A DNA stretch of 64,000 bases from a virus, in the IMG/VR virus record IMGVR_UViG_3300036399_001297, positions 1 through 64,000 of that record, one strand, 5' to 3'. Position 1 is the first letter of the stretch. Every line of letters begins with the position of its first letter. Under the pieces are notes generated by a model, which was given only the letters and a program-made list of their open reading frames with translations, had not been told where the DNA came from and searched no databases. The translations under genes were made by a program, and so were the position numbers. Below, one piece after another: positions 1,746 to 56,642 of this stretch.

Positions 1746-3398
1746 TTAAAAGAATCGATCTAAAAAGTACTTAGGTAAGGTTTTGCTATATCTTTGAATA
1801 GTATTAACAGCAGTTCCATCCAAAATATATGTGATAGAAAAATCATCCTTTGATCTTGTACACCTCCCACACATTTGAATTATTTTATCTATCATTTTGG
1901 ATGTATAATGTTCAGGATTTTCTTTGAACATTTTTTTAATTCTATTTGAATTTAAAGGTAAATATGGGGCTTTGGTAATAATTTGAAATCTGCCATATTC
2001 ATCATCTAAACTTATACCTGTATCTAATGATGGACTAATTAAAATAGTAGGTTCATTAGATTCAAAATGTTCTTTTATAATATCTTCATTTGTTATACCG
2101 TCTTCTCTAAAAAGAAACCGCCTATCATTTTTTAATTGTTTTTTAAACTCCTCGGTAATTTTATTTGTATGTGTATGTATTAATCCCTTTTCATTAGAAT
2201 GATTTTTACATAGTTCGATAGCATCTTTTACTAAATTCGGTAGCATTTGATCCATTGTTTTATAAGATAAACAATATTTTTTAGAACACATGATAGGTGA
2301 TTTTTTAGGATCAAAACTAGATTTTATTTCAAAATATTCATAATCTTTTTCGTCTATTCCTAGCGTCTTGGCAAATTCTTTATGATTTGATATAGTAGCA
2401 GAAATCATTAATATTTTATCCGCTTTATCAAAAATATTTTTTGATAATGGTTTTATATTATAAGGAGCAAATGTTACTTTATCTGTTGAAAAAGATTCTA
2501 TCAAATATTCACATTCTTTCCAATTAGACAATACCAAATCCATAGTAGATATTAAATTTGTAAGTCTGAATAATTTGCTAGAAATGCTATTATTAATTTT
2601 ATCGAAACCCGATTTTAATGAAACTTTTTGAGCGTTTACAAAACAGTCTTCGTATTCTTTTACAACTTCAATATGTAAATCTTGTAACCATTTTTTAGCT
2701 GAATTTGTATTATCATCTATTATTTTTGTAAATGGTATACCTTCAAATTTTAAATTTTTATAATTTATAGTTAAAGTGTATTTATTTATCAGTTCGTCTT
2801 CCAATTCAGAAGCTTCATCCATAATCAATATTTGTCTTCTTTGTAAGAAATCAGGAAGATTTAAAAATACACTATAATTTAATACAGGAGATTTTGATAT
2901 CAAACCGTTATTTCTATTTCTATAATAAGGGCATCTGTTTTCTTGGAAGCATTCTAATTTTTGAGACGGTAGTAATGTACAAGGCGCAAAATCGGTAGAA
3001 AAACTATTATCTATGTCGCATCTGTAATTTCCCTTTCCTTTGATAATATTTCCATCTATGAACAAATTGGAATATTGATCTTGTAAAGATTTACTAATAG
3101 TAAGAATAAAAGCACCGAAAAAATCAACATCTAAAAATTCTTGAGATACGCTAAATTCGTTATCTTTATTTTTTTTGTATATCGAATAATTTTCGATGTA
3201 TTCTTTTAGATGATCGTCTATTGTGCGGGTACTTTCGGCTATTGTTTTTGCTATATGAGACTTTCCCGAACCTGTGGGCAAACATCCTATGGCAATTTTT
3301 TTACCAGAATCCCATATTTTCTGTATCCTTTGAAACGCTTCAATTTGTTGTGCTCTAGGGGATGACCCAACCGGAAAAAAATCTAAAAATCTGGACAT
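1746..3398 (-). CDS. DinG/XPD(Rad3)-family SF2 helicase
   Basis: Q motif (PRAQQ), Walker A PTGSGKS, IMDEASELE, MISATI, QMCGRCTRSKDD, and a Cys cluster (YRC..APC..LEC..RCPY) at the Fe-S position. Confidence 0.88.
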   Translation of the reverse strand: MSRFLDFFPVGSSPRAQQIEAFQRIQKIWDSGKKIAIGCLPTGSGKSHIAKTIAESTRTIDDHLKEYIENYSIYKKNKDNEFSVSQEFLDVDFFGAFILTISKSLQDQYSNLFIDGNIIKGKGNYRCDIDNSFSTDFAPCTLLPSQKLECFQENRCPYYRNRNNGLISKSPVLNYSVFLNLPDFLQRRQILIMDEASELEDELINKYTLTINYKNLKFEGIPFTKIIDDNTNSAKKWLQDLHIEVVKEYEDCFVNAQKVSLKSGFDKINNSISSKLFRLTNLISTMDLVLSNWKECEYLIESFSTDKVTFAPYNIKPLSKNIFDKADKILMISATISNHKEFAKTLGIDEKDYEYFEIKSSFDPKKSPIMCSKKYCLSYKTMDQMLPNLVKDAIELCKNHSNEKGLIHTHTNKITEEFKKQLKNDRRFLFREDGITNEDIIKEHFESNEPTILISPSLDTGISLDDEYGRFQIITKAPYLPLNSNRIKKMFKENPEHYTSKMIDKIIQMCGRCTRSKDDFSITYILDGTAVNTIQRYSKTLPKYFLDRFF

Positions 3399-3404
3399 CT
3401 CTAA

Positions 3405-3433
3405 AATATAGAGTATTTTTTTAAAGGTGTCAA
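3405..3433 (-). promoter_or_regulatory. sigma70-type promoter of the DinG gene
   Basis: TTGACA-17 nt-TATATT-6 nt-ATG on the minus strand. Confidence 0.75.
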
Positions 3434-3687
3434 TTCATTTCCAAATTTTTATTCAAAGATTTGGATAGTTCATGATCTACTACTTTTAATACACAAGGAG
3501 CAGCATAATAAACAAAATTTTCTTTATCTCTTCCTGTATACAAACGACCAAAATTTTGCTTATTATTAATTTTTGGATAAGATTTCAAAGGTATTTGACT
3601 TATATCTAAAATGTTTAAATCTTTTTCTGGTATTTTTATAATAGTACCAGAAAAAACATTGAATATATGTATTAATTTATTTTCCAT
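3430..3687 (-). CDS. hypothetical protein
   Basis: 85-aa ORF tightly packed in a minus-strand operon. Confidence 0.6.
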   Translation of the reverse strand: MENKLIHIFNVFSGTIIKIPEKDLNILDISQIPLKSYPKINNKQNFGRLYTGRDKENFVYYAAPCVLKVVDHELSKSLNKNLEMN

Positions 3688-4030
3688 TTATAGTTAATAT
3701 TATATTAAAATATTTTGATTTTGCAACCTTTGGATTGAATAATGTAAAATATGGTTCAACGTCAAATAAATGTTTTTTTAGTGTAGATATTCTATAATCA
3801 AAATACATCAAATCGTCTTCATCGTGAGATTCTATACCAAATGGTATAGGTATCTCTATTTTATCCTTTGTTTTCTTTTCATTTTCTAGAATAAAAACTA
3901 AATAAAAATTTCTTTGGTAGAATAATACCAATTTACCTTTTTTTAAAATTTTATTTTTTAATTCGAACGATATATTTTTTTGCAATAATTTTTTGCAATT
4001 ATGTTCTATATATGTTCCGTTGATAAGCAT
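3677..4030 (-). CDS. hypothetical protein
   Basis: 117-aa ORF overlapping its neighbour in the operon. Confidence 0.6.
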   Translation of the reverse strand: MLINGTYIEHNCKKLLQKNISFELKNKILKKGKLVLFYQRNFYLVFILENEKKTKDKIEIPIPFGIESHDEDDLMYFDYRISTLKKHLFDVEPYFTLFNPKVAKSKYFNIILTINGK

Positions 4031-4034
4031 ATTT

Positions 4035-4433
4035 TTAACGATCCATGAATGATGCTTTTTCAGCGGGAGTCATTTTTGACAATACTAAGTTATAATACTG
4101 CCAAAATTTAGTACTATCTGGATAGGTTTTCAATGGAAGCATTGGCGTTCTTACTATATTTACGCTTTCACCGGGTACGGCTCTCCAGTCTTGCATTATT
4201 ATATCCCAAAAAAATTCCAAATTTTTAGGTCTTGGTTCGTATGCTCGCGGCAATGATGGTTTCTTGAAATGTAAAAGTTTAAGTCCTTCAGATGAATTCA
4301 ATAATTTACGATCTAAAGTCAACAACATTCTACGAGTTCTTGGTAATCTGTTTTTATCTCTACGTGTAAAAACAACCTCAACCACATGAGTTTGTGCTAT
4401 TTGATATAAACCTGATAATCCAATATTACCCAT
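4035..4433 (-). CDS. WYL_2/DUF2693-like SH3-fold phage protein
   Basis: VEVVFTRRD..RRMLLTL...FWDIIMQDWRAV resembles the V.FTK.DG..R.M..TL...WD....WRSF family pattern. Confidence 0.55.
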   Translation of the reverse strand: MGNIGLSGLYQIAQTHVVEVVFTRRDKNRLPRTRRMLLTLDRKLLNSSEGLKLLHFKKPSLPRAYEPRPKNLEFFWDIIMQDWRAVPGESVNIVRTPMLPLKTYPDSTKFWQYYNLVLSKMTPAEKASFMDR

Positions 4434-4815
4434 TTTTTGGTTTAGCTACTCCAAATATTCTAGCTTCATTCAAAAATACTAAATTTGAAATGTTATTTAA
4501 ACTAGCAACTTTAATACCTTTATCATTAGGAAAAATTACACAATCACCCTTTTTAACGGTTTGGCAATTCGGACCAGCTAGATGAACTTTTCCTACTCTC
4601 CAAGCAAAATTAACAACATCAACAGGAACCCAAATATTTCCACGTTTAATTTGTGTCCCGTCTGATGAAATATCTATATACTCTACCATTAGAATATCGT
4701 CTAATACATCTGTTAATTCCCATCCTTCCAGATTCAAATCAGAATTTTTATAACTTTCTAGTTCAACAAGCCCTTTATTTAAATTTTCTACGTTTTTTGG
4801 TATTAGATCAATCAT
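4426..4815 (-). CDS. groES: GroES-like co-chaperonin
   Basis: DDILMVE, GKVHLAGPNCQTVKKGDCVIF, FLNEARIFGV. Confidence 0.8.
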   Translation of the reverse strand: MIDLIPKNVENLNKGLVELESYKNSDLNLEGWELTDVLDDILMVEYIDISSDGTQIKRGNIWVPVDVVNFAWRVGKVHLAGPNCQTVKKGDCVIFPNDKGIKVASLNNISNLVFLNEARIFGVAKPKNG

Positions 4816-4821
4816 ATGTTT

Positions 4822-5205
4822 TTATTTATCTTCGGTTTTTATATTTTCAAGTAATTTATCGTAAATGTCTATTTCTCTTTTAGAAATTTCATATTCTTTC
4901 GCTAAAACATCTTCATTCGACTCTTCTTCATTTTTAAAACCTTTTTTCTTTATATATTCTATTTTTTTATGTATTTTAGGTAAAAGTGTTTTATAGAATT
5001 TACAATTATCTAAAAAATTTTCAGAATTGTCTATGCATTTGTCCCATCTATTAGTAGATACATTTATAATTTTACACACATCTAAATCGGACATAGACAA
5101 CCATCTATTTATAATATAATTAGATATATTATTTTCGTAAATAGGTTCTTTTTCTTTTTTCTTTAAAACCCAATCTAAAAATTCAAAAATATTACTAGTT
5201 TGCAT
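4822..5205 (-). CDS. 62: clamp loader small subunit, gp62-like
   Basis: IFEFLDWVLKKKE..YIINRWLSM..FYKTLLPK..LAKEYEISKRE follows the gp62 pattern of T4-like phages. Confidence 0.6.
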   Translation of the reverse strand: MQTSNIFEFLDWVLKKKEKEPIYENNISNYIINRWLSMSDLDVCKIINVSTNRWDKCIDNSENFLDNCKFYKTLLPKIHKKIEYIKKKGFKNEEESNEDVLAKEYEISKREIDIYDKLLENIKTEDK

Positions 5206-5863
5206 ACAATTTTTTAAAAAGTTTATTTGATACTTCCCAGTCAGTGCTTAACATCGAATCACCCAATCCATAGTGTACAACTCGTAATGGAAAAACACCA
5301 GCTTTAATTTTTAAATTATTTGCTCTTAAACAAAATGAAATGTCATAATGATGAAATTTAAAATTTTCATCCCATTGTAATTGTTTCTCAAGTGCCTTTT
5401 CGACATTTACTCCTATAAATAAACCGTCGAGTAATAATGCTCTGCTATCAGTAGGGCCAAAAACAGTTGTCCAAATTTTTTTATCTTTTGAATAATGTGC
5501 AACTTCTCCGACATAAGAATCTTGTTTACTCATTAAATGCCATGCACACATATTAGAATTTAGATCACATGCTTTAGTACCAGCTAAACCTATAATATCG
5601 TATTTTTCAAATGCCATTTGAATTTTTTCTATCGAAAAAAGATCGTCTATAAGTACATCATCGTGTATAAAAATTACATAATCGTTTTTATATTCTTCGG
5701 TTAAGAATCTATTATAAAGTTTAGGCAATCCTTCGGTATTATTTTCTATGATATTAACCTGATGCAACAATGAAGTTTTTTCTATAAAAAGTCCTAATGG
5801 TTTTGTTTTTAAGAAATTTTGTTTATTTTCTTGGGTGGCTACTACGAATTTAATGTTTTTCAT
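5195..5863 (-). CDS. GT-A fold glycosyltransferase (GT2-like)
   Basis: IFIHDDV (DxD-like), IIGLAG, LLDGLFI, WDENFKFHHYDISFC. Confidence 0.8.
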   Translation of the reverse strand: MKNIKFVVATQENKQNFLKTKPLGLFIEKTSLLHQVNIIENNTEGLPKLYNRFLTEEYKNDYVIFIHDDVLIDDLFSIEKIQMAFEKYDIIGLAGTKACDLNSNMCAWHLMSKQDSYVGEVAHYSKDKKIWTTVFGPTDSRALLLDGLFIGVNVEKALEKQLQWDENFKFHHYDISFCLRANNLKIKAGVFPLRVVHYGLGDSMLSTDWEVSNKLFKKLYAN

Positions 5864-5911
5864 GTTTTAAATATATATTTGTGCTGTTAAATGATAAGTA
5901 ATTTTATCATA

Positions 5912-6532
5912 ATGTCTAAAAAAGTCAAAAATAATAAAAGAAATATGAAAACATTAGTTCCACAAACATCTTTAAATGTAAAAAAACAAATAAAAAACGT
6001 ACTTGATGCGAATAGACGCAAAATGGATTTGAATGAATCTGATATTCCTTTTATTTCTAGTTTTGTTAAAGCTTTATTACAAGAACAGGGAGAGGATAAG
6101 GGTGAACCTATACCATCTACAAATGCTCCTGTTACTGAGCCATCAGAAACATCAGATGTTTTTTCGCCAGAAAAAAATAAAGAAGATTTCGAAAAATCTT
6201 TATCACAAGAAACCGATCCATCTAACTTTGAAACCGAAGGATTATCTCCTGAAATAACTCAACAAAACATAACCCAAATCAAAACATGGGCTGATAAATT
6301 AGATGAATTTGCAAACTTTTTAAATGATCCTGACAAGGGAACATCACTTCATAGAATATTGGCTGATTCCGACAGACCGGGTAGTTTGTTGAGGGGTGTG
6401 ACTCGTAAGGCTTCCGATTCTATTACTCGTATTGCTGGTGAAGTGGAAAAATTAAAGGAAGTTCTCAATACCTTTATCATAACCGCACCTAAGAAAATGC
6501 GTGACAATGAACAATCGGGTAGACCTTCCTAA
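5912..6532 (+). CDS. hypothetical late protein, possible head-internal/core protein
   Basis: TAAGTA at 5895-5900 favours the ATG at 5912 over 5891; acidic middle and coiled-coil C-terminus. Confidence 0.6.
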   Translation: MSKKVKNNKRNMKTLVPQTSLNVKKQIKNVLDANRRKMDLNESDIPFISSFVKALLQEQGEDKGEPIPSTNAPVTEPSETSDVFSPEKNKEDFEKSLSQETDPSNFETEGLSPEITQQNITQIKTWADKLDEFANFLNDPDKGTSLHRILADSDRPGSLLRGVTRKASDSITRIAGEVEKLKEVLNTFIITAPKKMRDNEQSGRPS

Positions 6533-34390: not shown

Positions 34391-35242
34391 ATGGCTAAAA
34401 CTAAAAAAGAAAACCTAGAAAACGAACCCCTCGCTGACATTGACGATGCTTTTAAAATCCTAGATGATTTAAATCCAGACGCAGCATTTCTAAATGAGAA
34501 TACCCTTTCCACAGTTAAGGAATGGATAGACACTGGTTGTATGGCTTTAAACGCTATAATTTCGGGTTCGTTGTATGGCGGTATACCTATGGGTAGAATT
34601 ACAGGATTTGCTGGACCCCAAGCATGTGGAAAAACTTTAATGGTTAATAAAATAATGGCTCATGCTCAAAAGAAGGGTATGAGAGTAGCTTATTTTGATA
34701 CTGAAAATGCTCTTGATCCTGATACAGCATCAAATTTAGGATGCGATCCATCAAAAATTAAACATTGTCCAACAGAGGTAATCGAAGAATGTAGAAATCA
34801 AATTGTAAAATTTTTGAAAAGCATCATCGATAATAATCTACAGGGAAAAGTTTTGTTGGTTATAGATTCTTTGGGAAATCTTATATCCTCTAGAGAAGCA
34901 AAAGTAATCGAAGACGGAAAAGATTCGGCAGATATGGGTGCGAGGGCTGTTGCGTGTTTATGTCCAAATACACTTATACACACCATAGACGGAGTTAAAA
35001 AGTTATCCGATTTAAAAATAGGAGATTTTGTTTTGACTCATTTAGGTAGATATAAAATGATAACAAATAAGTGGGAAACAAACCATAAAGAATATATTAA
35101 AATAAAAACAAAAAATTCTTATATTTTATTATCAATAAATCATAAACTTTTAGTAAAAAGAAATTCAAAACTATCATATATAGAGGCCCAAAATATTAAA
35201 CCTACTGATAAATTATTAAAGTTTAACGAGCAAAATCATTAA
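34391..35242 (+). CDS. uvsX: RecA-like recombinase UvsX, N-terminal part (188 aa) fused to a split-intein N-fragment
   Basis: IDTGCMALN, GPQACGKT, FDTENA, VIDSLGNL, ADMGARAVA, then intein sequence CLCPNT. Confidence 0.93.
   Translation: MAKTKKENLENEPLADIDDAFKILDDLNPDAAFLNENTLSTVKEWIDTGCMALNAIISGSLYGGIPMGRITGFAGPQACGKTLMVNKIMAHAQKKGMRVAYFDTENALDPDTASNLGCDPSKIKHCPTEVIEECRNQIVKFLKSIIDNNLQGKVLLVIDSLGNLISSREAKVIEDGKDSADMGARAVACLCPNTLIHTIDGVKKLSDLKIGDFVLTHLGRYKMITNKWETNHKEYIKIKTKNSYILLSINHKLLVKRNSKLSYIEAQNIKPTDKLLKFNEQNH
34955..35242 (+). mobile_element. split intein N-fragment (95 aa) of UvsX
   Basis: block A CLCPNTLIHT, KKLSDLKIGDFVLT, block B SINHKLLV, IEAQNIKPTDKL, then stop. Confidence 0.92.
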
Positions 35243-35273
35243 AATGTAGAGCAAAATACATAAGTATGAATAT

Positions 35274-36380
35274 ATGGAAAATATATTCATAAATTATTTT
35301 AAAAAGAATAAAATAAAATTATCAGAAAAATCATGGAATAATTTAACTCTTATAAAAAATATAAGAGTTGAAAAATTTTTATCAATACCTAAAAACGAAA
35401 CTAGATATAAATGGTTTTGTGATTATGACGGAACATCAACAGCTTTAAATTTTGTAAGAAAAAATAGCAAAAAAATAATGATAGAAAAACTTTGTTATAT
35501 ATGTGAAAGTAGTTTAGGTGAACAAACTTTATCAAAACAATTTTCTTTTATATATTCAAGTAATAACGAAAATCTCAAACCATCATCACATTTAAATAAA
35601 ATGTGTTTTAATTGCGCCACAAGAGAAAATTCTAAAAACGGATTAGAGAAAAGAAAAAAAACATGCTTAGATAAATACGGCATAGAATATAAAATTTTAG
35701 ATTCTGACGTAATTAAAAATAGAAAAAAAATTTTAACCGATAGATACGGTGAAAACTATAAAGAATTTTTTTGGGAAAAAGCAAAAAACACTTATATAAG
35801 AAAACTTGGCGTTTCTCATAATACAAAAATTCCAGAAGTTCTGGAAAAAATGGTAAAAAATAGATTAGAAACATTAAAAACCTTATCTCCGGAAAAATGG
35901 AAAGAATGGTCTGATAATAAAATAAAGGCATATAACAAAGAAGGATCTAGTGGATTATTTGGCAGAAATGATTTTGATGGAAATAGTAAGATAGCTAAGG
36001 ATTTTATATCTAAACTTATAAATGTATTAAATCTGCAAGAGAACGAATATATTACAGAAAAACCACATTCGAAATATAATATTGATCTTTATATAAAAGA
36101 TTTGGTTATAGTAGAATTTTATGGTGATTTTTGGCACGCAAATCCAGAAATATATAAACCAGATGACATTATAGGTGTAAGTTACAACACAATTACCGCG
36201 AAAGAGAAATGGGAAAAAGACGCTTACCGAATAGAAAAATTAAAAAACGAATTAAATCTTCCGGTTATAATTGTATGGGAAAAATCATATAAAGAAAATA
36301 AAGATAAAATAATACTTGATATAATCAAAAATATTAATATAATAAAAACCAACAAAGAAATTAAAACATATGTTTATTGA
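35274..36380 (+). CDS. free-standing homing endonuclease, Vsr-like PD-(D/E)xK type
   Basis: C-terminal YNIDLY..IVEFYGDFWHANP..WEKDAYR..VIIVWE; N-terminal KKTCLDKYG-type DNA-binding repeats; TAAGTA at 35261-35266. Confidence 0.85.
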   Translation: MENIFINYFKKNKIKLSEKSWNNLTLIKNIRVEKFLSIPKNETRYKWFCDYDGTSTALNFVRKNSKKIMIEKLCYICESSLGEQTLSKQFSFIYSSNNENLKPSSHLNKMCFNCATRENSKNGLEKRKKTCLDKYGIEYKILDSDVIKNRKKILTDRYGENYKEFFWEKAKNTYIRKLGVSHNTKIPEVLEKMVKNRLETLKTLSPEKWKEWSDNKIKAYNKEGSSGLFGRNDFDGNSKIAKDFISKLINVLNLQENEYITEKPHSKYNIDLYIKDLVIVEFYGDFWHANPEIYKPDDIIGVSYNTITAKEKWEKDAYRIEKLKNELNLPVIIVWEKSYKENKDKIILDIIKNINIIKTNKEIKTYVY

Positions 36381-36507
36381 AAATAATTACGAAGAAATTG
36401 ATATACTAGAAATCACAAAAATAGAAGAAGAAAAAACTTTAATAGACATTTCTGTTGAAGAAGATGAGACATTTTGTATTACTGATGAAAGAATTATAAG
36501 TCATAAT
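36370..36507 (+). mobile_element. split intein C-fragment (46 aa) of UvsX
   Basis: block F LIDISVEEDETFC, block G IISHN followed by Cys+1. Confidence 0.93.
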
Positions 36508-37041
36508 TGTAAGTCTATGCTTAGAGCGATTACACATACAGCAGCAAAGGCTAATTGTCCTGTTGTTTTCACTAATCATATTTACGACAATCCTGGTGCG
36601 ATGTATCCAACCTTGATTAAAAACCAATCGGGTGGTTCTGGTCCTCTGTATATGAGTTCGGTACTGGTTCAGATGTCTACAAAGCAGGAACGAGTCGGAA
36701 AATCTGATAATAAAAATTCAAATGATGATGTCACACCTTTATCCAAAGATGTTAACGGATTAACAATGAGAGCATTGACTACAAAAAATAGATTCGTTCC
36801 TCCATTTTTGGAATGTGAAATGTATCTAAATTTTAGAACCGGACTTTCTAAATATTCAGGATTATTGGAAATGGCAGAAGGTTACGGTGTAATAGCAAAA
36901 CAAGGTCATAGATACGCTCTTGGAGAAGAAGTTTTAGGGTTTTATAAAGATTGGAGAGAAGATGAAATCGTCTGGAATAAGATCTTACCAAAACTTGAAG
37001 AGAAATTGCAAACCGAATTGAAGTTTAAAAAAGAAGATTAA
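36370..37041 (+). CDS. uvsX: split-intein C-fragment fused to the UvsX C-terminal part (177 aa)
   Basis: intein ends IISHN; extein CKSMLRAIT, VFTNHIY, SGGSGPLY, TTKNRFVPPF. Confidence 0.93.
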   Translation: MFIENNYEEIDILEITKIEEEKTLIDISVEEDETFCITDERIISHNCKSMLRAITHTAAKANCPVVFTNHIYDNPGAMYPTLIKNQSGGSGPLYMSSVLVQMSTKQERVGKSDNKNSNDDVTPLSKDVNGLTMRALTTKNRFVPPFLECEMYLNFRTGLSKYSGLLEMAEGYGVIAKQGHRYALGEEVLGFYKDWREDEIVWNKILPKLEEKLQTELKFKKED

Positions 37042-42907: not shown

Positions 42908-43279
42908 ATGACTAAAAAATCATCAAAAAATAAATCGACGGAAATAGCAAAAGAATCAAAGACTCCTAGTTTATCTTCCGCCAATATACAAGATATAGAA
43001 GAAAAAATTTTAACCGCGATCAATAACCAAGAATTGCAAAGAGGTATTGAAAAATGGATAAGAAATAATGAACAAAAACAAAAAGAAAATAATAGAGATT
43101 TAGGTCTATTGAGTGGTATTATCGGTGAGTATCTTGATTCTTACATACTGTTTGGTTATAATTTAGAAGGAGAACGTGTAATAATACAAAGCCAATCTTC
43201 CCCCAAAGATCGTGACGCTTTAATGGAATTTTTAAAAATAGTTTTTTTGAAACATCATCAAGGAGATATAAATGAGTGA
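42908..43279 (+). CDS. hypothetical protein
   Basis: 123-aa ORF in operon. Confidence 0.6.
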   Translation: MTKKSSKNKSTEIAKESKTPSLSSANIQDIEEKILTAINNQELQRGIEKWIRNNEQKQKENNRDLGLLSGIIGEYLDSYILFGYNLEGERVIIQSQSSPKDRDALMEFLKIVFLKHHQGDINE

Positions 43280-52304: not shown

Positions 52305-53987
52305 TTAAAAAAATACCAGAGGATTATAACCGTCTTCGTTTTTTAATTCTTGTTCCTTTTTATCATTAGATCTCCAAATTATTTCTGGACTATGAGATTT
52401 GTATTCATATTCGTATCTATTTTTTGTAATATTAGGTTCCCATTTAAGTAATTCCGATTGAAATCCTAATCCTTCTGATATAACAGCCGGATCTTCTTTT
52501 ATTTTACCTTCGGGTAAATAGGCTAGGGGAGCATTATAAGATATTTCTTTTTTTGTGGTATTAACCGTACCAAATATAATAGGACTCTTTTTAATAAGAT
52601 CGGAATTATCGATAAAAGGAGTCATAAATAATGGTCTTCCTTGATCATCGGTTTGTTTAACATTAAAATATTTTTGTGCTAATGTTGGTTCTAGGATAAA
52701 TAAAGCCCATACTAATGACCAAACTCTATCATCTCTATCACTTTCATTTTTTTTAGAAAATGTGTAATTAGGCAGTTGTACAAATTCTGCTATTTCTATT
52801 AAAGTATCGAGATCAAATATTTTAACAGCTTTTAAACTATCTACCCAATAACGGAAATTTGTCATACTCCGATATCTAGTATTCGTATGATTGTATATAC
52901 CCAATCTATTTTCATTATTGTAGTGCTGAGACATCCCCTCAAATTTATAAGTAACCACTGATTCATAATTGTGGGTTCTGGCAACAACATCTAAAACCTG
53001 TTGACCGTAATTATTGTTTTCGATTAGTATAGGAGGTCTACCCCAATCATTTGCGATACCGATAAGACGTGTACCGAAATGATACGGTGTTATAGTATTG
53101 GATGCAAATATAGCCACCTGTTCTATATTGGTTAAATCTGAAACATCTAAAACTTGAGCTACTGTATTAGTTCTTCCTATCCCCTCACCAACGTCCACCC
53201 CTATAATATAATGACTTGTTGGTTTTGGTTGTCTATAAATTTTATAAGAACCTTCGTCTGTTGCTAAAATAGGCTCTTTACATAATTTTTTAAGTTCTTC
53301 TAAATGTTCGGCTGATATAACAGATTTGCCTAACGTATGAAAAGTATTTTCGTGTTCTTGTTGAAATGTATGTAGTGATCCTAATGAAGCTATTTCACTT
53401 TTCTTCCATTCTTCATTACGGTCATCATTTTCACTCCAATGCACTTTTTCCAGTTTCCATCCACTGTCAGGTTTTTGAGCTTCTAAATATAATTGATAAA
53501 ATTTATTTTCTTTATCGGCTCCGTTAGGTGTAGATATTCCAACAATCTGACTTTTTTTAGAAGACGTTATAGTAGGTATAACAGATTTCCATAATTCCTC
53601 CATCAAATCATTTTGTATATGTGCCATTTCATCAATTATGAGGCATTGATGTGATAATATATTATTAGAAATATATTTATGATTATCTACAACTTCTAAA
53701 AATTCATAAACAGGATCATTATTTTCATATTCCTCTTTTTTTATTAAAGAAATATTATTCCAAAAAATATCACCGATTTTAGAATTTTTAGCATATTTCC
53801 ATTTTTTTGATGAAATCATAATTTTATGTTTAGGTGTACAGTTTAAAATTTCACCATTAGAAAAGTATAATTTTAACTTTTTATTATTTTTTCCAACAAT
53901 TAATCCTTTAAAATCTTTAAATCCCTCATCGGTTAAAATTTCAAAATCATTATTTTTATAAATTTTGTAATCAGATAAATCGGCCAT
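52305..53987 (-). CDS. 17: split-intein C-fragment fused to terminase large subunit C-terminal part (Walker B to nuclease)
   Basis: intein ends ILSHQ; extein CLIIDEMAHI, ISTPNG, FQQEH, GVDVGEG, IENNNYG, DDRVWSL; start at MADLSD just after the endonuclease stop. Confidence 0.92.
   Translation of the reverse strand: MADLSDYKIYKNNDFEILTDEGFKDFKGLIVGKNNKKLKLYFSNGEILNCTPKHKIMISSKKWKYAKNSKIGDIFWNNISLIKKEEYENNDPVYEFLEVVDNHKYISNNILSHQCLIIDEMAHIQNDLMEELWKSVIPTITSSKKSQIVGISTPNGADKENKFYQLYLEAQKPDSGWKLEKVHWSENDDRNEEWKKSEIASLGSLHTFQQEHENTFHTLGKSVISAEHLEELKKLCKEPILATDEGSYKIYRQPKPTSHYIIGVDVGEGIGRTNTVAQVLDVSDLTNIEQVAIFASNTITPYHFGTRLIGIANDWGRPPILIENNNYGQQVLDVVARTHNYESVVTYKFEGMSQHYNNENRLGIYNHTNTRYRSMTNFRYWVDSLKAVKIFDLDTLIEIAEFVQLPNYTFSKKNESDRDDRVWSLVWALFILEPTLAQKYFNVKQTDDQGRPLFMTPFIDNSDLIKKSPIIFGTVNTTKKEISYNAPLAYLPEGKIKEDPAVISEGLGFQSELLKWEPNITKNRYEYEYKSHSPEIIWRSNDKKEQELKNEDGYNPLVFF
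53646..53987 (-). mobile_element. atypical split intein C-fragment (114 aa) ending in His-Gln
   Basis: EILTDEGFKDF, block B CTPKHKI, block F VYEFLEV, block G NNILSHQ followed by Cys+1. Confidence 0.9.
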
Positions 53988-53988
53988 T

Positions 53989-54855
53989 TTATTTTTTTCT
54001 ATGTTTTTTTCCACCACTTTTTATCCATCCAGTTGGAATATCTTGAGAAATAGGATGTCTTTTAATCTTATTTGTAGTCGTATCACATATAAAAATATAT
54101 TTTTCTATACATTTTTTACCAGTGCCTTTTACCCATCCATCAGGTATAGTTATATCCGGATTATGTCGTTTACAAACATTAGCGACTGAGTTATATATAT
54201 AAATAGAACCTTTACCTGATATTTTTGATATATTTTCTTTATTATTTTCGCGTGATTTTAAAATACCATCCCTAATATTTTTTTTAGCTTCTTCGGATCT
54301 TTTCATACCCCTGTGTTTTTCGGCCATTTTTTTAATTTTTTCGGGATTTTTATTGATTTTTATCATACGTTCTTTATGTTTTTCCGGATTTTCTTTTATC
54401 CATTTTTTAATACCAATTCCTTTTCTTTTATTTATTTCTGGATTATCAAAAACTTTTTCTCTCATCATTTTTTTATAGTCTTCAGATTTCCATTTTTTTT
54501 TAAATCTTGTAGATATCTTTTTTATTGCCTTTGATGACCACGCACAAGGCCCATAGCCACCTTCTTTAATGTTATACGTATCATTTCTTTCTATAAATTC
54601 TAATGTTACTAATTTTCTTTCGGCGTGAAGTGCTTCTTGATACGTATTATAAAAATTCAATATTGTTTTTTTAAAATTTTCTATTCCATATTTTTTTATG
54701 GATCTTTTTAAATTAAGACCAGACCCCATATAACCATCATCTATATTATCTGTCCTATGAACTCCTATATAAATTTTACCGTTTTTAATATTTTCAATTT
54801 CATATAAATAATTGTATTTTCTATTTATTTTCGGATCGTTTAAATGTTTCTTCAT
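53989..54855 (-). CDS. free-standing GIY-YIG (Seg-like) homing endonuclease
   Basis: YLYEIENIKNGKIYIGVH..DDGYMGSG..AE..YNIKEGG; NUMOD3-like GMKRSEEAKKNI; two IP.GW.K units; TAAGTA at 54862-54867. Confidence 0.92.
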   Translation of the reverse strand: MKKHLNDPKINRKYNYLYEIENIKNGKIYIGVHRTDNIDDGYMGSGLNLKRSIKKYGIENFKKTILNFYNTYQEALHAERKLVTLEFIERNDTYNIKEGGYGPCAWSSKAIKKISTRFKKKWKSEDYKKMMREKVFDNPEINKRKGIGIKKWIKENPEKHKERMIKINKNPEKIKKMAEKHRGMKRSEEAKKNIRDGILKSRENNKENISKISGKGSIYIYNSVANVCKRHNPDITIPDGWVKGTGKKCIEKYIFICDTTTNKIKRHPISQDIPTGWIKSGGKKHRKK

Positions 54856-54902
54856 TAGAAATACTTATACACGATGATTTATTATAGATGAATTTGCTTA
54901 TA

Positions 54903-55040
54903 TCAATCATTTAAAACTATAAAATGAGGCGGTTCTTCTTGATTATTTTTTAACAATTCTTCTAGATCTTTTAAATTGATTTTAAATATTTCTTCTGTTT
55001 TTTTATCTTTTAATGTTACAATTGTGTCACCAGTAACACA
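54903..55040 (-). mobile_element. short split intein N-fragment (45 aa)
   Basis: block A CVTGDTIVTL..KINLKDL, then stop; no block B. Confidence 0.88.
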
Positions 55041-56642
55041 ATTTATAGATTGACCTCTAACAGCAGAAGCAGAAGTAGAAGAAACTATAATACTTGACCC
55101 ATTACTAAGATCGAATCCGTTTTTTCTATTAGATTTTACAGCTGGTTTTAAATATACAGGCAATTCTTCAAAAGCCATTTTTATTCTAGAAAAAATTTCC
55201 ATGGCAGTATCAGCTTTGTTAGCCAGTATAGCAACTTTTTTATATTCATGAAAGCATACTAACCATAAAGCATACATGGAAACAATTGTGCTATTGTGAG
55301 TAGGTATTAAACCTTTTCCACATAGATATAAAGAATCTGGACTATCTACGGTGATACATCTAACAGGAACACTTTCTACTTCTTTAATATCTTTTATATA
55401 AAAATATTGATTTCTTTTAGATGTTGACAAATAAGTTTTTACAAATCTAGAACATTTAAAATCCGAACAAGTAACACATTCTCTTGGTTTAAAATATAGA
55501 ATACCACATTTTGTATATTCTTTATCTTTAATTTTAGGTATTTTTTCATTATATTTTACCTTATATCCTAAACTTTCTATCAATTCTTTTACTTGTAAAA
55601 TTAAAGGTATATTAGTATTATAAAAAATAGCACTTCCGTTTTTTTCAATATATCCATCAGAATCCATTAAACCTTTTAAAAGCTCCATTCTTTGATGTTT
55701 GGATGCTTTTAAAAATATATCGGGTATATGTTTATTTTTAAATAAATTGTTAGTTCTTAAATGATAGTATAAAGAATTTTTTTTATCTTCGTTAGTTAAT
55801 TTTACAAGAAAATTGTCTTTTTTATATTCTTTAACGTTTATTATTTTATAAAAATCTAATTCTTTTATCTTTTTTAAAATAGAATCTATATCTCTTATTC
55901 CTATAGTTATTCTAGAATCATTCGAATGTCCATCTCCTAACCACAAACCTAAAATATATGGATTTATAGGTAAATTCTTGTTATCATTATATAAACCATC
56001 TACACACGAAATTATACGATGATTTGGTTCTCCGCTTAATGTCGTTAAAGTTTTTAAAATTTCTTCTGTTGTTTTTGAACAACCTTTACTTTTTTTAGTT
56101 TTTCTATCATTTCTAGTTTCAGTAAACCAAAGATGTTCAGCATCAGCGATTATTTTTTCACCGTTATCAAATAATATTTCGTAACATTTTCTATTGTGTA
56201 ATATATCATGCGCTTTTGTTACGTTGTAGATGTTTCCGTCAGAACCATATATTTTATCTCCGGTTTTTAAATCTCCCATTTTTAAAAATCCATTTGGAGT
56301 TGGTATAGGAGTTTCAATAGAAAGAGCTTTCCCCATCTGTCTCGAAGCACATACCAATAATCTTCTTTCGTCCTTTAAACTTTTTAATATTCTTTTTTGA
56401 TATTTTCTAAGTTTAATTTTTATTTTACCTTCATCTAAATTTACAATATGAAAATGTCTTTCCGCAAAATGTAAAATACTTTTAGCACATGTTCTATTTT
56501 CTTCGAACATCTCTTCGGTAAAGATTATTTTTGCGTTCTTGTTTAGAAGATTTTCATTTCCTTTATAATATCCACCATCGACAAGAATATTATCTTTATC
56601 AATTTCAGGAACATCAGGAATAGGTGCTTTTTTTCTTGGCAT
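54903..56642 (-). CDS. 17: terminase large subunit N-terminal part with one cis intein and a split-intein N-fragment
   Basis: LRKYQ, ASRQMGK|intein|STIVS, ILANK..A.EI, AVRGQSIN|CVTGDT. Confidence 0.93.
   Translation of the reverse strand: MPRKKAPIPDVPEIDKDNILVDGGYYKGNENLLNKNAKIIFTEEMFEENRTCAKSILHFAERHFHIVNLDEGKIKIKLRKYQKRILKSLKDERRLLVCASRQMGKALSIETPIPTPNGFLKMGDLKTGDKIYGSDGNIYNVTKAHDILHNRKCYEILFDNGEKIIADAEHLWFTETRNDRKTKKSKGCSKTTEEILKTLTTLSGEPNHRIISCVDGLYNDNKNLPINPYILGLWLGDGHSNDSRITIGIRDIDSILKKIKELDFYKIINVKEYKKDNFLVKLTNEDKKNSLYYHLRTNNLFKNKHIPDIFLKASKHQRMELLKGLMDSDGYIEKNGSAIFYNTNIPLILQVKELIESLGYKVKYNEKIPKIKDKEYTKCGILYFKPRECVTCSDFKCSRFVKTYLSTSKRNQYFYIKDIKEVESVPVRCITVDSPDSLYLCGKGLIPTHNSTIVSMYALWLVCFHEYKKVAILANKADTAMEIFSRIKMAFEELPVYLKPAVKSNRKNGFDLSNGSSIIVSSTSASAVRGQSINCVTGDTIVTLKDKKTEEIFKINLKDLEELLKNNQEEPPHFIVLND
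55293..56327 (-). mobile_element. class 3 intein with LAGLIDADG endonuclease (345 aa) in the terminase Walker A
   Basis: starts with Ala (ALSIETPIPTP); WCT triad in HLWFT, VRCITV and PTHN, then Ser+1; LGLWLGDG and LKGLMDSDG. Confidence 0.93.

Follow-up and report, generated by a model that had tools for sequence, protein, structure and literature searches.

The closest described counterpart of the terminase gene analysed here is the fractured gp17 terminase from Lake Gatun, the intein of which was reported as unusually split (Dassa et al. 2009, PMC2677866). In that account, the endonuclease gene is of the GIY-YIG or Vsr-like type, the spacer before it measures 27-51 nt, IntC abuts or overlaps its stop, and an RNA hairpin, often with TATAAATA, lies in the endonuclease 5' UTR at 15 of 16 loci. 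The Lake Gatun intein, later called GOS-TerL, is described as having an IntN with motif N1 only and a long IntC (122 aa, given as 115 aa in a review table). Class 3 inteins are represented by the structures 6rix, 6riy and 6bs8 (PMC7664689), and class 3 and P-loop inteins are known from mycobacteriophage terminases (Kelley 2016, PMC5050341). Inteins ending in Gln are known to splice, slowly in two of the three cases reported as studied (PMC4031507); the same source gives Pyrococcus abyssi Pol II, Methanoculleus marisnigri Pol II and Chilo iridescent virus RNR as contiguous inteins that use Gln for Asn in cyclisation.

The present locus lies in a stretch of 64,000 nt (the window; positions 1 to 64,000 of IMG/VR record IMGVR_UViG_3300036399_001297) from an uncultured lake-water myovirus, the record being a fragment assembled from a metagenome, 39% complete according to CheckV. 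Here, a T4-type large terminase gene on the (-) strand carries two interruptions (Table 1). It is likely that these are two unrelated mobile elements whose splicing, one in cis and one in trans, would yield a terminase of 635 aa. As described for the Lake Gatun gp17, which also came from a freshwater lake, a T4-like terminase, a split intein and a free-standing endonuclease gene between the intein halves are found together on one strand.

The terminase gene and the intein in Walker A

The first ORF (54903-56642, 579 aa) runs in frame from the N-extein through a complete intein and a second extein part into an IntN and then stops; the endonuclease gene and an ORF joining IntC to the C-extein follow in that order.

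Table 1. Features of the interrupted terminase gene, in order of translation (positions in the window)
Feature	Coordinates	Strand	Evidence
Terminase N-extein, part 1, 105 aa, ends at Walker A Gly-Lys	56328..56642	(-)	Collinear with L005 TerL; tblastn matches in related loci
Intein 1, 345 aa, Ala1 to Thr-His-Asn, then Ser+1	55293..56327	(-)	Pfam LAGLIDADG_3; class 3 structure matches
Terminase extein, part 2, 84 aa, from Walker A to Walker B	55041..55292	(-)	Pfam Terminase_6N, subthreshold
IntN, 45 aa, Cys1, block A only, plus TGA stop	54903..55040	(-)	Comparison with relatives
Spacer, 47 nt, 5' of endonuclease gene	54856..54902	(-)	One-mismatch late box
GIY-YIG (SegE-like) homing endonuclease gene, free-standing, 288 aa	53989..54855	(-)	Pfam; PHROG
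IntC, 114 aa, blocks B (Thr-x-x-His), F and G, Ser-His-Gln end	53646..53987	(-)	39 homologues; PDB 6dsl_B
Terminase C-extein, 446 aa plus stop, begins with Cys+1, Walker B strand with Asp-Glu	52305..53645	(-)	tblastn; L005

With the inserts removed, Walker A, Walker B and the nuclease domain are collinear with those of the T4-type large terminase (gp17). The re-derived ORFs bore out the reading frames, the junctions and the extein sum (105 + 84 + 446 = 635 aa) proposed in an earlier note on this DNA. The normal gp17 length claimed there agrees with an intein-free relative, L005, whose TerL of 633 aa is uninterrupted and collinear across both intein sites; both junctions could be fixed because this sequence was available for comparison. 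The C-extein, Cys+1 plus 445 residues, is 61% identical to L005 and matched phage large terminases in tblastn searches with E down to 1e-29. Pfam scores were under the cut-offs both for Terminase_6N on the 84-aa extein (17.7 bits, cut-off 22) and for Terminase_6C on the C-extein (20.2 bits, cut-off 22.6).

Intein 1 is inserted between the Lys and the Ser of Walker A. It contains a LAGLIDADG_3 domain (33.2 bits, cut-off 22.5) and matches the class 3 inteins 6rix, 6riy and 6bs8 with E values from 9.5e-26 to 2.5e-24. Its position 1 is Ala, which is no nucleophile, and the Trp (B:12), Cys (F:4) and Thr (G:5) of the class 3 triad all align with 6rix. By Ala1 and the triad, intein 1 is of the class 3 type, as had been proposed earlier, and a branched thioester at the block F Cys is predicted. 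MchDnaB1 and MsmDnaB1 (6RIX, 6RIY, 6BS8) share Ala1 and the Trp-Cys-Thr triad, with LAGLIDADG in their full-size forms. Insertion between the P-loop Lys and Ser/Thr is common to intein 1 and the actinophage P-loop (TerL1-a) inteins; the hosts described by Kelley (2016) are actinophages, whereas the host of intein 1 is the T4-type terminase of a freshwater myovirus. The element is polymorphic: a 99% relative (L004) lacks it, leaving an exact in-frame empty site of 1035 bp, and presence and absence are seen again in a second lineage (L029 and L030).

A split intein before Walker B and its relatives

The second intein is placed immediately before the Walker B strand, with block A only in IntN and blocks B, F and G all in IntC, so that its split is atypical. 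The earlier call of a split before block B stands, since Thr-x-x-His lies in IntC and both the homologues and the CatC structure agree. The intein has the class 1 residues Cys1, Thr51, His54, Gln114 and Cys115. Of the third ORF, the earlier note had its existence, the IntC and the resumption of the terminase at CLIIDE right, but its start wrong. The candidate start GTG at 54017 was rejected in favour of the ATG at 53987, one base past the TAA stop of the endonuclease gene, the Met of which is the exact start in 34 of the 39 homologues; of the other five, four have a short upstream extension containing this Met and the fifth is an endonuclease fusion.

IntC matches the CatC intein (PDB 6dsl_B; E 6.1e-06, residues 6-115), in keeping with the suggested comparison with known TerL split inteins, and a PDB search with IntN alone gave no match (lowest E 0.51). 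The close homologues of IntC number at least 39, and matches at E up to 0.001 extend to 476 cluster representatives. All 39 keep Cys+1 and the block B Thr-x-x-His; in an alignment of 33 rows, this Thr, this His and Cys+1 do not vary, and Gln is at least 90% conserved. The His-Gln end, noted earlier as a rare variant, is present; it is no oddity of the locus: Gln is terminal in 37 of the 39 homologues, and Gln or Asn in all. Judged from these alignments, terminal Gln is the rule within the family of this split intein, a point new here. Gln and Asn have exchanged at least four times in the family. The three Gln-ended inteins given in PMC4031507 are contiguous, whereas the family of the present intein is naturally split and ends in Gln in most of its members.

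The conserved residues bear on whether the terminase halves are ligated at all. They could instead form a two-piece enzyme held together non-covalently, the intein fragments serving as a dimerisation module, and intein-free assembly does occur among fractured phage genes, Aeh1 NrdA being an instance given by Dassa et al. (2009, PMC2677866). We consider this improbable here. A break directly before Walker B would leave about 160 intein residues in the ATPase core. Furthermore, catalytic residues would be of no use to a module that only docks, and therefore the invariance of Cys1, Cys+1 and the two block B residues (Thr and His), together with a cyclisable Gln or Asn in every homologue, counts against it. 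Ligation by the split intein remains the preferred reading.

The order IntN, GIY-YIG gene, IntC is shared by 11 of 84 related viral contigs; these come from other samples, with extein identity down to 35-42%. In all 11 loci that have the N half, IntN is 42-45 aa long and begins with Cys, and endonuclease homologues are found at the same position in 11 related loci. In the five reliably measured loci (the window, L004, L027, L029/L030 and L039), the spacer 5' of the endonuclease gene is 45-52 nt long and the gap from the endonuclease stop to the IntC ATG is 1-7 nt. The stop after IntN is TAA in five relatives, and it is therefore neither a recoded TGA nor an assembly error. A misassembly, false stop or frameshift, or a decaying non-functional gene, might be suspected in a metagenome-assembled record of low completeness; however, it is extremely unlikely, since the three-gene layout recurs with its stop at the same place, every ORF is intact, and each of four runs from four other studies, all labelled as lake water metagenomes, contained 0.51 or more of the sampled words.

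Contiguous, Gln-ended forms occupy the same terminase site in P0073, P0061, P0054, P0166 and P0167, and in L034 the intein is split and the endonuclease gene absent. That contiguous, endonuclease-bearing and endonuclease-less forms of this intein all exist is also new here. The combination of the two inteins had been put forward as apparently undescribed, but the same pairing was seen again in other contigs and proteins.

The endonuclease gene is assigned by Pfam SegE_GIY-YIG (28.8 bits, cut-off 25) and GIY-YIG (23.3 bits, cut-off 22.6) and by PHROG 314, homing endonuclease (E 2.3e-36). Phage GIY-YIG genes are often inside group I introns (Dassa et al. 2009, PMC2677866), and RNA splicing of a self-splicing intron could in principle restore a contiguous intein and terminase mRNA. 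This is highly improbable at the present locus: an Rfam search of 53500-55300 at E up to 10 returned no intron family and three chance snoRNA matches (E >4), the non-coding flanks of the endonuclease ORF are only 47 nt and 1 nt long, IntC keeps its own Met-Ala-Asp start in the 34 homologues mentioned above, and L034 is split without any endonuclease gene.

The locus qualifies as a "fractured gene" as Dassa et al. (2009) use the term: the N-extein is in frame with IntN and followed by a stop, a spacer within 27-51 nt leads to a free-standing GIY-YIG gene, and IntC, in frame with the C-extein, abuts the endonuclease stop. The spacer matches the T4-type late box TATAAATA with one mismatch, and no significant hairpin was found in its 47 nt (fold z 0.15; 103 of 200 shuffles as good), so that the hairpin with TATAAATA is absent; the 5' UTR hairpin is frequent among fractured genes and not a defining feature. 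The layout is real and widespread, but its kind is already known. The earlier note had accordingly overrated its novelty, since an unusually split terminase intein was in Dassa et al. (2009) and class 3 and P-loop terminase inteins were known as well. In the features compared, residue 1 and IntN length, GOS-TerL has Ser1 and 37 aa, whereas the present intein has Cys1 and 45 aa; the two families may nevertheless be identical.

AceL-TerL and the consensus Cat intein (PDB 6DSL) are likewise atypically split class 1 TerL inteins with Cys1, Cys+1 and block B in IntC. Homology to CatC is distant, and AceL/Cat have an IntN of 25-30 aa and an IntC of 104 aa, compared with 45 and 114 aa here. The Cat chain continues with Cys-Glu at +1/+2, whereas here Cys is followed by three hydrophobic residues and Asp-Glu. 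Only where a homologue has the context Cys-Glu-Phe-Leu-Gly-Ser does the Cat alignment run on into the extein; this context maps on gp17 about 100 residues downstream of Walker B, and therefore the two are probably not allelic. From the crystallised chain, the present intein and AceL/Cat probably occupy different terminase sites, which is new here. Terminal Gln was found in none of the 15 homologues of the site-d type. Two cultured phages carry homologous inteins, as a contiguous mini-intein in the TerL of Nitratidesulfovibrio phage SRB7757 and in an ORF beginning with IntC in Campylobacter phage CP81 terL1; both are inserted six residues further downstream than the present intein, past the Asp-Glu of Walker B, and end in His-Asn.

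Proposed assembly of the terminase

We propose that intein 1 would splice in cis, the block F Cys forming the thioester that is transferred to Ser+1 before Asn cyclisation. The second element would have been a class 1 mini-intein placed directly before the Walker B strand, into which a free-standing GIY-YIG gene landed after about 44 residues, before block B, leaving IntN on the N half of the terminase and IntC on the C half. Since the IntC ATG lies one base past the endonuclease stop, it is probable that the IntC gene is translated by coupling to the endonuclease gene. IntN and IntC would then associate and splice in trans, through a Cys1 thioester, transfer to Cys+1 and cyclisation of the terminal Gln, giving the 635-aa terminase with its ATPase site intact. 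That one splicing event in cis and one in trans are needed would fit the strict conservation of the catalytic residues. A comparable dependence is said to exist in the split dnaE of Trichodesmium erythraeum, where Liu and Yang reportedly described in 2003 a single gene with several inteins needing both cis- and trans-splicing; the polymerase is said to be cellular and the split site canonical, with the halves at distant loci and no endonuclease gene between them.

A more far-reaching joint reading, which we regard as doubtful, would place the Gln-ended inteins just before Walker B in an undescribed, naturally and atypically split clade. The conserved tail of the 42-45-aa IntN and the conserved head of IntC would pair as a hairpin and drive fragment capture, and Gln would be kept because slow cyclisation spares the large, near-complete IntC a wasteful C-terminal cleavage while IntN has yet to arrive. 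Given the class 3 P-loop intein as well, the packaging ATPase would then need two maturation steps, chemically independent of each other, to become active. If true, such a two-key design could time or gate DNA packaging.

Implications for split inteins and terminases

Atypically split natural inteins are rare and sought after for protein ligation, and the locus points towards a large family of this kind, apparently not yet characterised and probably orthogonal to the AceL/Cat type. Since Gln and Asn have exchanged repeatedly, the family offers a natural series on how the terminal Gln affects splicing versus premature cleavage. Related contigs present, at a single site, the empty site, the contiguous mini-intein, the endonuclease-fractured intein and the split intein without endonuclease; the gene-breaking model of Dassa et al. 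(2009) therefore has all its stages represented at one site and becomes testable. If both elements splice as proposed, an essential late phage enzyme can tolerate two independent protein-splicing dependencies.

The interrupted terminase locus and its junctions

The T4-type large terminase (gp17) gene is spread over three consecutive ORFs on the minus strand. In the first ORF, 105 aa of terminase run up to the Gly-Lys of Walker A. An insert of 345 aa (intein 1), with Ala at its start and Thr-His-Asn at its end, comes next, then 84 aa of terminase beginning with Ser and a 45-aa tail beginning with Cys (IntN) that runs to the stop codon. A 47-nt spacer separates it from the GIY-YIG ORF, and the third ORF opens one base past the TAA of the latter; its initial 114 aa (IntC) close with Ser-His-Gln and are followed by 446 aa of terminase that start with Cys and then the Walker B strand, which contains the Asp-Glu. 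Pfam assigns LAGLIDADG_3 to the first insert; the middle ORF matches both GIY-YIG and SegE_GIY-YIG and is identified by PHROGs as a homing endonuclease (E 2.3e-36). The Pfam terminase N and C models match the separate terminase pieces only below cut-offs. Tail tube and baseplate genes adjoin the locus. The window derives from an 83-kb IMG/VR virus record (CheckV completeness 39%), for which no near-identical DNA was found among GenBank phages; in the protein search 1478 phage records match, every one at less than 60% identity and the best at about 26%. Elsewhere in the window, a short stretch resembling part of the GIY-YIG gene region may be a piece of another endonuclease copy.

Coordinates of the features discussed, in the window and in related viral contigs (L numbers)
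Sequence	Feature	Coordinates	Strand	Detail
Window	Interrupted terminase locus	52305-56642	-	
Window	Terminase N half ORF	54903-56642	-	579 aa, TGA stop
Window	GIY-YIG ORF	53989-54855	-	288 aa, ends TAA
Window	Third ORF (IntC, terminase C half)	opens at ATG 53987	-	
Window	uvsX/recA, second fractured gene	34391-37041	+	canonically split intein
Window	Stretch resembling part of GIY-YIG gene region	43043-43087	+	45 nt, 80% identical, E 8.8e-5
L008 (Campylobacter phage CP81, cultured phage)	Terminase C half, ORF154 "terL1"	3004-4332		product annotated hypothetical protein
L025	Atypically split intein in terminase P-loop	4060-5085		
L045	Atypically split intein in terminase P-loop	3057-4125		
L045	Same terminase, contiguous mini-intein past Walker B Asp-Glu	3379-5763		
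L079	Related intein fractured by endonuclease-like ORF	3001-3990		different ORF, 330 aa
L075	Endonuclease, IntC and terminase C half in one ORF	3232-5973		in-frame

The boundaries of both inserts were settled by related contigs. The terminase of L005 (633 aa, 61% identical) is collinear and uninterrupted across both insertion sites, reading Gly-Lys-Ser at the first and Ser-Ile-Asn-Ile, then the Walker B strand, at the second. The extein total of 635 aa in the window agrees with this length, as the earlier note had claimed in describing the joined product as a gp17 of normal size. L006 (98% identical) carries both inserts, and L004 (99% identical) is without the first while keeping IntN, stop codon, GIY-YIG gene and IntC. 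Since the DNA alignment shows the empty site of L004 to be a precise fusion of the window's two flanks, the first insert is a clean 1035-bp in-frame element.

A class 3 intein and a Gln-terminated split intein

Intein 1 aligns in two blocks with the mini-inteins 6rix, 6riy and 6bs8 (E 9.5e-26 to 2.5e-24), which are the class 3 inteins MchDnaB1 and MsmDnaB1 (PMC7664689). The same source names a Cys-His-Thr triad plus Trp as the class 3 hallmarks; in intein 1, position 1 is Ala and the alignment matches the His and Trp of block B, the Cys of block F and the Thr-His-Asn of block G. The stretch between the two aligned blocks holds the LAGLIDADG domain and is a weak match to PI-SceI. On these residues intein 1 is assigned to class 3. 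Mycobacteriophages offer precedents both for terminase inteins of class 3 and for inteins inserted between Lys and Thr of the P-loop (PMC5050341; 2025 bioRxiv survey).

A search with IntC, confined to proteins of 308-980 aa, gave 39 homologous proteins, all with Cys directly after the intein and then the Walker B strand. The start Met-Ala/Ser-Asp, as at the window's IntC ATG, is shared by 34; four are slightly extended upstream, and the remaining one, P0039 (733 aa), carries a fused GIY-YIG domain. P0039 joins endonuclease, IntC and terminase C half in one in-frame ORF, as does the contig L075; this form may be a genuine fusion or may reflect a stop that was missed. The terminal residue of the intein is Gln in 37 of the 39 and Asn in two, with His-Gln as the final pair in 29, which argues that the terminal Gln is characteristic of the family and not a lesion. 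Across 33 aligned rows, neither the block B Cys-Thr-x-x-His-Lys nor the Cys+1 varies, and the terminal Gln is at least 90% conserved.

IntC also matches the "Consensus engineered intein CatC" (PDB 6dsl_B, residues 6-115, E 6.1e-06); IntN alone had no meaningful match in the PDB. According to a review, Cat is a consensus of the atypically split inteins AceL-TerL and GOS-TerL, and the IntN/IntC sizes are 25/104 aa for AceL, 37/115 for GOS and 30/104 for Cat. The split intein is therefore distantly related to the atypical terminase inteins already characterised, the group with which the earlier note had associated it. That note's further proposals, of a class 3 intein in Walker A, of a Gln-terminated end and of a split before block B, all hold, the last since block B lies in IntC. 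Recoding of the TGA at the end of IntN was considered and rejected because the same frame stops again 7 codons on and five relatives have TAA at this position.

Distribution and insertion sites

Seven pieces of the locus were compared with 84 distinct related contigs (L003 and L010 being the same contig, and the window uncounted). Both sites are empty in 55, and two more, L023 and L026, appear empty at Walker B allowing for a shortened alignment. The layout IntN, GIY-YIG, IntC recurs in 11 of the 84 (L004, L006, L027-L032, L039, L042, L043) and a homologue of intein 1 in seven (L006, L026, L029, L034, L038, L055, L067); two, L006 and L029, have both elements. L030 is a twin of L029 without intein 1, giving a second presence/absence pair. 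In L034 the intein 1 homologue accompanies a split intein that lacks the endonuclease gene, and the spacer of just 54 nt resembles, by eye and in one frame, an endonuclease C-terminus. IntN is 42-45 aa with Cys first in all 11 loci where the N half is present. Where reliably measured (window, L004, L027, L029/L030, L039), the endonuclease gene begins after a spacer of 45-52 nt, and 1-7 nt separate its stop codon and the ATG of IntC.

The same layout in independent contigs excludes an assembly error as its origin. Removal of the endonuclease gene by RNA splicing is unlikely, since no group I or II intron was found in Rfam around this gene (E up to 10), hardly any non-coding sequence surrounds its ORF and the IntC start codon is conserved; the 20 sequencing runs listed include no RNA run and have no bearing on this either way. 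It is less likely that the halves form a non-covalent two-piece terminase without ligation, an arrangement that would leave the conserved catalytic residues unexplained. The fractured two-intein locus is real and well supported, and from its sequence we infer the splicing itself.

When 1.84 billion cluster representatives were scanned without a profile, 476 matched at E <= 0.001. Among the matches listed, the insertion site was classified for 134 of 150 representatives, and 59 of the 134 share the window's site (site a; Cys, three residues, Asp-Glu), 24 ending in Gln and 35 in Asn, with IntC N-terminal in the protein for 40. No Gln end occurs in the other 75 classified representatives among these matches, which fall into five other context classes. 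Contiguous Gln-ended inteins are present at site a in P0073, P0061, P0054, P0166 and P0167. In P0061 the P-loop additionally holds a complete class 3 intein. P0054 combines a class 3 mini-intein with a His-Gln intein in cis, and a third IntN, further downstream, forms its end. A short IntN terminates both P0054 (619 aa) and P0167 (492 aa), following Gln-Glu-Tyr/Phe-Glu at a third site in the terminase; it begins with Ser1 in P0167, and P0054 would need removal of three inteins. The pairing of a split intein with a class 3 intein, which the earlier note considered possibly undescribed, recurs in nature, as in L006 and L029.

A tree was built from 95 site a IntC rows (59 Gln, 36 Asn; 112 columns, last two residues excluded). 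With 45 of its 91 inner branches unresolved, it needs nine Gln/Asn changes, compared with an average of 29 for shuffled labels (none of 500 shuffles as low), and at least four are forced by well-supported branches; the idea that the Gln end arose just once was therefore rejected. The window's IntC lies in a group of 53 rows, 48 of them Gln (SH-aLRT 92, from a short alignment). Evidently both ends can work in this family. Gln is reported as slow in two Pol II inteins; the RNR intein of Chilo iridescent virus prefers it (PMC4031507).

Neighbouring sites are also occupied. Unlike the window, Nitratidesulfovibrio phage SRB7757 has a contiguous mini-intein with a His-Asn end six residues further on, past the Asp-Glu, and "terL1" of Campylobacter phage CP81 opens with an IntC inserted at the SRB7757 position, ending Ser-His-Asn before Cys. 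In L079 a related intein lies at yet another site, five residues past the Walker B Asp-Glu. The P-loop of L025 and L045 holds an atypically split intein (Gly-Lys, then Cys) that ends Ser-His-Asn before Thr, has no endonuclease gene between its halves and has an IntC about 31-33% identical to the window's; the contiguous mini-intein that L045 also carries makes its terminase a further natural case in which trans- and cis-splicing are combined. In the Cat chain, Cys-Glu follows the intein (the review mentions Glu+2 of its C-extein), whereas Cys and the Walker B strand follow here. For a homologue with the context Cys-Glu-Phe-Leu-Gly-Ser, the alignment to the Cat chain extends over four extein residues, and on the gp17 chain 3cpe_A this context falls near residue 376, compared with about 280 for the Walker B region, which suggests that AceL/Cat-type inteins occupy a different terminase site. 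Allelism with the window's split intein was accordingly judged unlikely.

A fractured terminase gene

Loci of this kind are already known: Dassa et al. 2009 called them fractured genes. As in the loci of that paper, all three genes are on one strand, the spacer fits (27-51 nt there), the endonuclease is of a type found there (GIY-YIG or Vsr-like) and IntC abuts it. One of the genes listed by Dassa et al. 2009 encodes a gp17-like terminase and comes from Lake Gatun, a freshwater lake; its intein "is fractured at an unusual point", with a C part of 122 aa holding every motif but N1. A hairpin is reported in 15 of their 16 loci; unlike these, the window's 47-nt spacer showed no regulatory hairpin, its fold being no better than shuffles. 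The late box TATAAATA is exact in L028, L029, L031 and L042, and the window has only a one-mismatch version. In the second fractured gene of the window, uvsX, a 368-aa ORF lies between the halves, the IntC ATG overlaps its end and IntC ends Ser-His-Asn before Cys.

A literature search found no paper joining intein, terminase and C-terminal Gln. Relative to published terminase inteins, as represented by the review and the Cat chain, the insertion site of the split intein and the Gln end across a whole family are new; new too are the long, conserved IntN and the fact that a single site shows every evolutionary stage of the series.
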